Origin: a virus
Taxonomy: Duplodnaviria > Heunggongvirae > Uroviricota > Caudoviricetes
Virus record (IMG/VR): IMGVR_UViG_2563366900_000004
Strand: one strand, 5' to 3'
Length of the DNA stretch: 39,499 bases
Shown here one piece after another: positions 39,001 through 39,499 of this stretch; the stretch's first letter is position 1; the number at the start of each line of letters is the position of its first letter. Made by a program: the position numbers.

Positions 39001-39499
39001 ATAATCCTCGCACTCGCGGGGATTTCTTTTATCTGAACTCGCTACGGCGGGTTTTGTTTTATGGAGATGATAAATGCACTTCCGAGTCACAGGTGAATGG
39101 AATGGAGAGCCATTCAACAGAGTTATCGAAGCAGAGAACATCAACGACTGCTATGACCACTGGATGCTGTGGGCGCAGATAGCACATGCAGACGTAACTA
39201 ATATTCGAATTGAAGAACTGAAAGAACACCAAGCCGCCTGATGGCGGTTTTTTATTGCCTGATTTGCAGGTTCGATTCCCTATTCGGAGATAGCACTCAT
39301 GCAACACGAACTACAACCTGATTCACTGGTTGATTTGAAATTCATCATGGCCGATACTGGCTTCGGTAAAACCTTCATCTATGACCGGATTAAGTCCGGC
39401 GACCTGCCAAAAGCCAAAGTTATCCACGGGCGAGCAAGATGGTTATATCGTGACCATTGTGAATTCAAAAATAAGCTCTTAAGCCGCGCCAATGGGTAA

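Follow-up and report, generated by a model that had tools for sequence, protein, structure and literature searches.

The 16-mer TTGCAGGTTCGATTCC in front of the excisionase gene xis is probably (about 60% in our estimate) a second copy of the T-arm of the tRNA gene argW, which takes no part in crossover and may have been kept within the integration module as a cis element of the xis leader, as judged from a comparison of sequences. The 16-mer is not the crossover site; strand exchange takes place about 300 bp further on, at CTGCAGGGGACACCAT. A short conserved leader precedes the excisionase gene and has the 16-mer at its 5' edge; selection may retain this element for a cis-acting role in the leader. 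Its most likely role would be that of a sequence-specific protein-binding or translation-initiation element controlling expression of the excisionase, its resemblance to a T-loop probably going back to descent out of tRNA/att DNA. In this module family, expression of the excisionase is proposed to be all that governs excision (PMC2951348), which makes a conserved element ahead of xis a reasonable place to seek that control. As the stretch carries three prior annotations, i.e. an att core in CUS-3, a pI/cII site in HK620 and a boundary sequence in Sf6, the feature is not new; what the analysis provides are corrected boundaries of CUS-3 and a comparative picture of the element.

The prophage end and the xis leader

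The window, i.e. the whole stretch of 39,499 nt that was analysed, is a CUS-3-like, P22-like prophage (genus Lederbergvirus), trimmed from the ATG of int to the stop codon of xis. Positions 38900-39499 have 100% matches in Escherichia phage phiv205-1 and in prophages of UTI89, S88, IHE3034, APEC O1 and others; the final gene there is annotated as torI and followed by dsdC. The end of the CUS-3 record CP000711 shows 100% identity to positions 38900-39279. Among the matches listed, the 66-aa xis product of the window is annotated as torI in 30 E. coli genomes with a 100% match to the terminal 600 bp; the HK620 and Sf6 homologues of K-12 TorI are 100% identical to it (PMC3509656). The features that matter here are the following:

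1-1158, plus strand: integrase gene of the IntS type, 385 aa (ORF list), corresponding to 'int' at 192-1349 of the CUS-3 record and to intS in UTI89
39231-39257, plus strand: intrinsic terminator, stem-loop 39231-39250 and T-run (terminator scan), homologous to the 'tL4 terminator' of HK022 (X51962)
39255-39267, plus strand: TTGCCTGATTTGC (TTGC-N5-TTGC), its HK620 homologue being annotated as cII-binding site of the 'phage integration' promoter
39264-39279, plus strand: the 16-mer ("S1"), identical to argW 46-61; the same site is called 'attR core' in the CUS-3 record
39270-39279, plus strand: GTTCGATTCC, the most conserved portion across lineages (conservation analyses)
39282-39289, plus strand: second, degenerate pentamer ATTCG, 12 nt past the first, overlapping the xis Shine-Dalgarno sequence GGAG (39286-39289)
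39299-39499, plus strand: xis, a TorI-type recombination directionality factor, 66 aa; the window stops at its stop codon
39476-39495, plus strand: primer attR-IHF2 (from PMC3509656, compared with the window), 197 bp downstream of the 16-mer
Starting in the last 6 bases of xis, plus strand: first Int arm-type repeat GGGTAAAA; HK620 has 'attP' repeat features at the xis stop

As the window begins exactly at the ATG of int, it includes neither the attL/P' arm nor the intS promoter nor the argW copy, and trimming at gene boundaries places both attachment sites outside the window. Many other IMG/VR contigs (e.g. L035, L036, L039) likewise stop at the int ATG and at the xis stop plus 0-3 nt. Attachment sites are thus systematically lost from such contigs, and the 16-mer is the sole argW-derived sequence remaining in them.

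Repeats were also observed elsewhere in the window. The neuO tract at 2044-2143 consists of 14.3 perfect copies of GAGTCTT (AAGACTC on the opposite strand) and is the counterpart of the phase-variable poly-psi tract of CUS-3 neuO, for which the CUS-3 record has 19 copies. The phase state of neuO is linked to the copy number of the heptamer, and as 14 is not divisible by three this allele may be phase-off. An ORF on the minus strand (30360-31310) contains two short arrays of imperfect 12-bp repeats, TGTGCGGCTTCA and CATCATGTGCGG, at 30769-30880, which may be iterons of a replication origin.

The 16-mer occurs only once in the window, even with up to two mismatches permitted. The sequence-only reading had taken it for the T-stem/loop of argW, and our alignment bears this out: UTI89 argW (tRNA-Arg CCT according to ARAGORN, positions 698-772 of locus L007, 161 bp upstream of intS) holds the 16-mer at positions 46-61, a stretch that begins with the final two bases of the variable loop, runs through the 5' T-stem (GCAGG) and the T-loop (TTCGATT) and takes in CC of the 3' T-stem. 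All 16 bases are thus identical to the bacterial target attB, and identity breaks at both edges (t vs a in argW on the 5' side, c vs t in argW on the 3' side). The window has no longer exact match to argW than these 16 nt; when it was shuffled 300 times by a first-order Markov model, a match of 16 nt or more arose once. That argW is the integration target holds for the modules of CUS-3, Sf6, HK620, KplE1 and Kapi1. The flanks had been said not to complete a tRNA; indeed, ARAGORN detects no tRNA gene in the window and Rfam no tRNA-family match across 39000-39499 (E <= 10). Regarded as a tRNA-like RNA, the 16-mer lacks the 3' T-stem and has no fold that is common to the lineages. The match is not a coincidence, one of the options left open earlier: its orientation is that of the tRNA, it is located within the int-xis module about 300 bp from the real core, and relatives have kept it.

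The placement between a terminator and xis, noticed from the sequence alone, agrees with the terminator scan and the gene coordinates. HK022 and Stx phages, whose integration modules are different, remain homologous across the terminator, the matches ending at about 39253-39257 (query 354-358), i.e. just before the 16-mer, implying that the element is part of the argW module. TTGCCTGATTTGC overlaps the first 4 nt of the 16-mer, and GTTCG at 39270-39274 equals the core of the attL sites defined for TorI. The general order of the leader is GTTCGATT(C/T)CC, then 5-7 nt, GGAG and the ATG of the excisionase gene, so that the motif lies about 28 nt before the ATG. A promoter scan found no sigma-70-like promoter around the 16-mer, and no Rfam family matches the xis leader. 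Two more terminator-like hairpins (39003-39024 and 39035-39054) lie between a gene for an ASCH-domain protein and a small ORF (39074-39241); three terminators are thus found within 250 bp ahead of xis. Control of torI by Rho was reportedly described by Menouni in 2013.

The crossover site and the CUS-3 record

The att core of KplE1, HK620, Sf6 and Kapi1 resembles the 16-mer: each is short and identical to part of the 3' half of argW, both point the same way, and both belong to one int-xis module; within argW they adjoin, sharing one C. However, the core is located between xis and int, is found at all phage-chromosome junctions and is contained in recombination substrates, whereas the 16-mer lies upstream of xis and has none of these properties. 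The core of KplE1 is CTGCAGGGGACACCAT (PMC2951348), and the true core of the prophage studied here, CTGCAGGGGACACCAT(T), lies about 300 bp downstream of the 16-mer, between xis and int and outside the window. The features 'attP core' of HK620 and Sf6, att of Kapi1 and 'attR' of phiv205-1 are all located downstream of xis; in HK620, Sf6 and Kapi1 the annotated attP core is accompanied by GGGTAAAA repeats on this side of xis, with the 16-mer on the other. For Kapi1 a 17-bp duplication of the core sequence and an attP between int and xis have been described (PMC8787464).

The 16-mer might nevertheless be the true att core of CUS-3-type prophages, in which case torI through dsdC would be chromosomal and the circle junction would read terminator-16mer-TGCAGGGGACACCA-P'-int, without torI. 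This is how CP000711 annotates both ends, the record terminates there, and the perfect 16-bp direct repeat surrounds nearly the entire prophage. We give this reading practically no credence. First, HK620, Sf6 and Kapi1, whose genomes are virion-derived, carry terminator, 16-mer, xis (torI), core, P' arm and int contiguously in this order. Second, we rebuilt two alternative empty sites, one joining yfdC-argW to the dsdC side at the downstream core, the other joining argW to torI at the 16-mer. At a coverage of at least 80%, the former, which is devoid of torI, occurs in 911 of the 5426 E. coli genomes, and at least 12 of them match all 656 nt at 100% identity, whereas the argW-torI junction at the 16-mer occurs in 0 of the 5426. 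Third, joining at the 16-mer would destroy argW. Fourth, excision by IntS, TorI and IHF works in vitro on a 135-bp attR that begins at window position 39476 (PMC3509656), i.e. within the 3' end of torI, so the 16-mer is absent from a working substrate. Finally, the attR of phiv205-1 is annotated downstream of xis. Hence, the idea that the 16-mer is part of a real core does not hold: the mapped or annotated core is CTGCAGGGGACACCAT(T), empty sites never join at the 16-mer, and attachment cores lying elsewhere, which the sequence-only reading had named as grounds for refutation, are what is found, so the core reading is wrong even though it is stated in a GenBank record. With crossover at the downstream core, the junction of the attP circle would be xis-CTGCAGGG(G)ACACCAT-P'-int.

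In CP000711 the 16-mer is annotated as 'attL core' at 1-16 and as 'attR core' at 40192-40207, the last 16 bases of the record, the latter corresponding to window positions 39264-39279. These features are the same sequence at the same place as our element, but the crossover they imply is contradicted by the comparative and published evidence. The label probably goes back to sequence identity with argW alone, and it leaves torI outside the prophage. A peculiarity of UTI89-type lysogens may account for it. The attR core of UTI89 (L003 3175-3190) reads CTGCAGGGACACCATT, i.e. it has GGG vs GGGG in attL, a 1-bp deletion. This form is present in at least 35 records, including UTI89, NU14, IHE3034, UM146 and PMV-1, and the next 25 among the matches listed are one base longer; other CUS-3-like lysogens have GGGG in the attR core, as does phiv205-1, the matched 600 bases of which are the window's last 600. 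With the deletion, the longest perfect repeat inside the true core measures 11 nt, and the 16-mer thus becomes the longest perfect direct repeat flanking a UTI89-type prophage. The CUS-3 label probably arose from a search for the longest perfect repeat, as suggested by the sequences of close relatives of the RS218 prophage; RS218, the host of CUS-3, belongs to the same O18:K1:H7 group as the UTI89-type lysogens.

The right end of CP000711 is thus about 320 bp too early, and the excisionase gene and the real attR are missing from the record, which misleads the delimitation of CUS-3-like prophages, the design of excision PCRs and readings of the proximity of dsdC to neuO. Many ST95/O18-type lysogens carry the deletion in the true attR core and their ability to excise may be affected; the 1-bp heterology could impair excision if the G-run falls in the overlap region.

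Some observations concern the neighbourhood of the integrated elements. In L127, L135, L180, L022, L301 and L312 the prophage attR is directly followed by an attL-like arm and the integrase of a different P4-like island, the elements forming tandem arrays at argW. The E. coli-type loci have at least five different sequences after ACACCA.

Variation of the leader motif among argW modules

The TorI-type xis loci were gathered from about 130 viral contigs as well as 24 species-representative genomes. Every one of the 80 E. coli-type loci has the motif, and the terminators ahead of these loci are of at least three kinds; five of these loci have single-base variants, all of them singleton SNPs. CAGGTTCGATT(C/T)CC is kept in relatives whose xis is 74-89% identical (one Enterobacter, one Serratia, one Citrobacter, two Pantoea, two Edwardsiella and many uncultivated viral contigs), and in nearly all motif-bearing relatives GTTCG is located at -28/-29 from the xis ATG, a few having it at -26 or -35. 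The sequence left of the motif is unrelated among the relatives, and the TGCAGG portion of the 16-mer is not conserved in them. For 39 unique motif-bearing loci, the lineages of which are not independent, mean pairwise identities were as follows:

13-mer CAGGTTCGATTCC: 0.91, a figure biased upward and in part due to ascertainment, as the loci were chosen and anchored by GTTCGA and are motif-bearing only
xis third codon positions: 0.62
14 nt right of the motif: 0.62
Left flank: 0.39

In these 39 loci the positions that were not anchored (CAG before, TT-CC after) are likewise at least 90% conserved.

The motif has also been duplicated and lost. Tandem copies are found in L130 and L133 (CAGGTTCGATTCCCGT CAGGTTCGATTCCCAT) as well as in L127, and a clean deletion fuses the terminator to the ribosome-binding site in L016 and L311-L319; in L016 the terminator tail ATTGCCTG continues directly into the ribosome-binding site. 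Many relatives, mostly more distant ones (L018, L019, L023-L029, L031, L135), lack the motif altogether and retain the argW core. A scan with the leader pattern returned mostly genuine phage tRNA genes and, in addition, a second, divergent xis family (MRELRDD...) that has the same leader and whose core is again CTGCAGGGGACACCA of argW. The modules of this family, to which the clean deletions in L311-L319 belong, have Int arm-type repeats GGGCATAA instead of GGGTAAAA, and only GTTCGATTCCC of the motif is conserved in them, but not CAGG. No IntS-family module aimed at a tRNA other than argW was present among the loci gathered.

As the motif has been lost several times, the element is dispensable; as it is more conserved across diverged lineages than the synonymous sites of xis, it is not simply decaying. 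The comparison of sequences thus indicates that the region of the 16-mer is not junk, but a conserved, albeit dispensable component of the excisionase leader in argW modules. The modules with the motif present, duplicated or deleted are a clean set of natural variants for probing the control of the excisionase. Of the earlier proposal that the 16-mer is a remnant of an attachment core, the part that may stand is the origin, whereas simple decay is at odds with a conservation better than that of xis synonymous sites.

This also bears on the possibility that the stretch is a neutral relic of tRNA/att DNA, left behind by an old module exchange or an aberrant recombination and marking a mosaic boundary. 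It is located exactly where homology to other lambdoid phages ends, the Sf6 record marks it as boundary sequence 'bsq2', it has repeatedly been lost without loss of the argW core, and neither a promoter nor an RNA family nor an RNA fold was found. Nevertheless, we regard a neutral relic as unlikely: in many lineages and in two xis families the conservation of the motif exceeds that of xis synonymous sites and far exceeds that of the left flank, the distance to the start codon is nearly fixed, some lineages have duplicated the motif in tandem, and near-invariance of 10-13 neutral nucleotides would be unexpected over such divergence.

In most of the diverged attPs (L012-L031, L127-L152) the stretch about 20 nt left of the core reads (A/G)TTCGATGTATGCAGGGGACACCA, a T-loop-like TTCGAT being contiguous with the core. 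This type of attP stretch has 3 mismatches to argW, and the E. coli-type attP has GTAGAT in place of TTCGAT. The attPs with TTCGAT further contain an inverted repeat, CCCCTGC...GCAGGGG, about 16-17 nt apart. As the 16-mer and the core adjoin in argW, we had considered that the 3' half of argW was split by insertion of xis, the two having once been a single block of 32 nt; this was rejected since most of the diverged attPs retain TTCGAT by the core, which makes the 16-mer an extra copy. In the 14 nt after the motif only 4 positions agree with argW, which is chance level.

Several other candidates were also discarded. An RNA mimic of the T-arm or a hairpin sequestering the Shine-Dalgarno sequence was rejected as the folds vary by lineage, with unremarkable z-scores no better than those of shuffles, and inspection of the leaders by eye revealed no consistent stem covariation. 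If the 16-mer paired at long range with the downstream core, in a transcript reading through both, covariation would be expected, but the relatives (CCAGG with UAUGC) show none. A sigma-70 promoter using TTGCAG as -35 element has no acceptable -10 element, and a TorR box, CTGTTCATAT, fits only some of the leaders.

Candidate readers of the motif

The annotations of HK620 (pI/cII) and Sf6 ('bsq2') refer to the same DNA stretch in near-identical modules and do not mention its tRNA identity. According to the former, the element would belong to a CII-activated promoter, pI, driving transcription of xis and int during establishment of lysogeny; the HK620 record annotates a promoter and the cII site TTGCCTGATTTGC here, and Sf6 a homologous pI. 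CII sites of lambda and P22 have TTGC-N6-TTGC spacing and straddle a weak -35 element, with the -10 element about 13 nt downstream. The repeats in the leader, however, are spaced by N5, TTAC replaces the first TTGC in 18 of 80 E. coli-type loci, the second TTGC is missing in all other lineages keeping GTTCGATTCC, and the promoter scan gave no -10/-35 match. The cII-site features of HK620 are thus not kept where the T-loop-like motif is kept. Moreover, such a promoter would produce excisionase during integration, and intS owns a mapped promoter in attL (PMC2951348). We therefore consider a role as pI promoter highly improbable.

The element might be an operator at which TorI controls its own gene by binding to GTTCG and to the ATTCG 12 nt downstream; the RDF/repressor proteins Apl, Cox and Vis autoregulate in such a manner. 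Five TorI sites (I1-I5) in KplE1 attL have been defined by mutating GTTCG, GATCG and GTCCG (PMC2951348). The leader resembles these sites in containing GTTCG preceded by a purine and in the closely spaced direct repeats, and within the 16-mer GGTTCGAT is similar to the TorI site GGTTCGCT. L012 and L020-L022 have another GTTCG or GTCCG at a distance of 12 nt downstream, L128 shares this layout, some lineages have tandem copies of the motif, and arrays of GTTCG are found in the P' arms of HK620, L128 and L138. However, the KplE1 sites lie in the P' arm with a 3' context of C/T-N, whereas the motif lies in the xis leader with the 3' context ATTCC; GTTCG is followed by A in the leader, but mostly by C or T in the P'-arm sites, and conservation extends well past the pentamer, throughout GTTCGATTCC.

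The specificity of the excisionases also argues against an operator for TorI. Where attP is contiguous, residues in the excisionase's presumed recognition region vary together with the repeats of the P' arm, GKTFIY occurring with GTTCG and TAKYFY with (A/G)TTACC without GTTCG. Unlike the KplE1 TorI sites, the leader motif persists where the excisionase appears to read the TTACC repeat: it is present with both types of excisionase, in 40 of 52 vs 15 of 23 unique combinations, and this similar frequency cuts against binding of TorI. Thus, the core of a TorI site is present (GTTCG at 39270-39274), but the motif does not track the DNA specificity of the excisionase, and we judge autoregulation via this element to be distinctly unlikely.

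The argW core is common to all motif-bearing modules, which allows for an Int pseudo-core, a host factor or a translation element. In the first case, the motif would mimic the T-arm side of attB, and Int bound to the arm repeats at the 3' end of xis could bridge to it, looping out or silencing xis in the lysogen. The only specificity that all motif-bearing modules share is indeed that for the argW core, i.e. core binding by Int, as the arm-type repeats (GGGTAAAA vs GGGCATAA) and the excisionase sites differ among modules; in most lineages attP keeps the T-loop-like TTCGAT just left of the core, and IntS is constitutively present in lysogens (PMC2951348). However, this model is purely inferential, TGCAGG of the 16-mer is not conserved in relatives, and the functional E. 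coli-type attP has GTAGAT left of the core instead of TTCGAT, indicating that TTCGAT is not needed for core recognition. An Int pseudo-core is thus, in our opinion, very unlikely.

In a more general form, and only as a tentative proposal that we believe to be unlikely, GTTCGATTCC may be a T-loop-derived 10-13-mer that serves as portable, selected cis-regulatory leader of xis in all argW modules, whatever the specificity of excisionase and arm sites, with a common factor silencing xis in the lysogen. The common reader would then be, e.g., the core-binding domain of the integrase or a host protein. If true, the GTTCG recognised by TorI-type excisionases would itself be derived from the T-loop of the target tRNA.

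Finally, the P' arms of L004, L128, L138, L300, L309, L318, L340 and L355 combine GKTFIY with GTTCG/GATCG and TAKYFY with (A/G)TTACC, and L360, which has TDRYFY, contains neither GTTCG/GATCG nor (A/G)TTACC repeats. As the Int arm-type repeats switch between GGGTAAAA and GGGCATAA with the argW core being constant, these modules constitute a natural series of specificity swaps.
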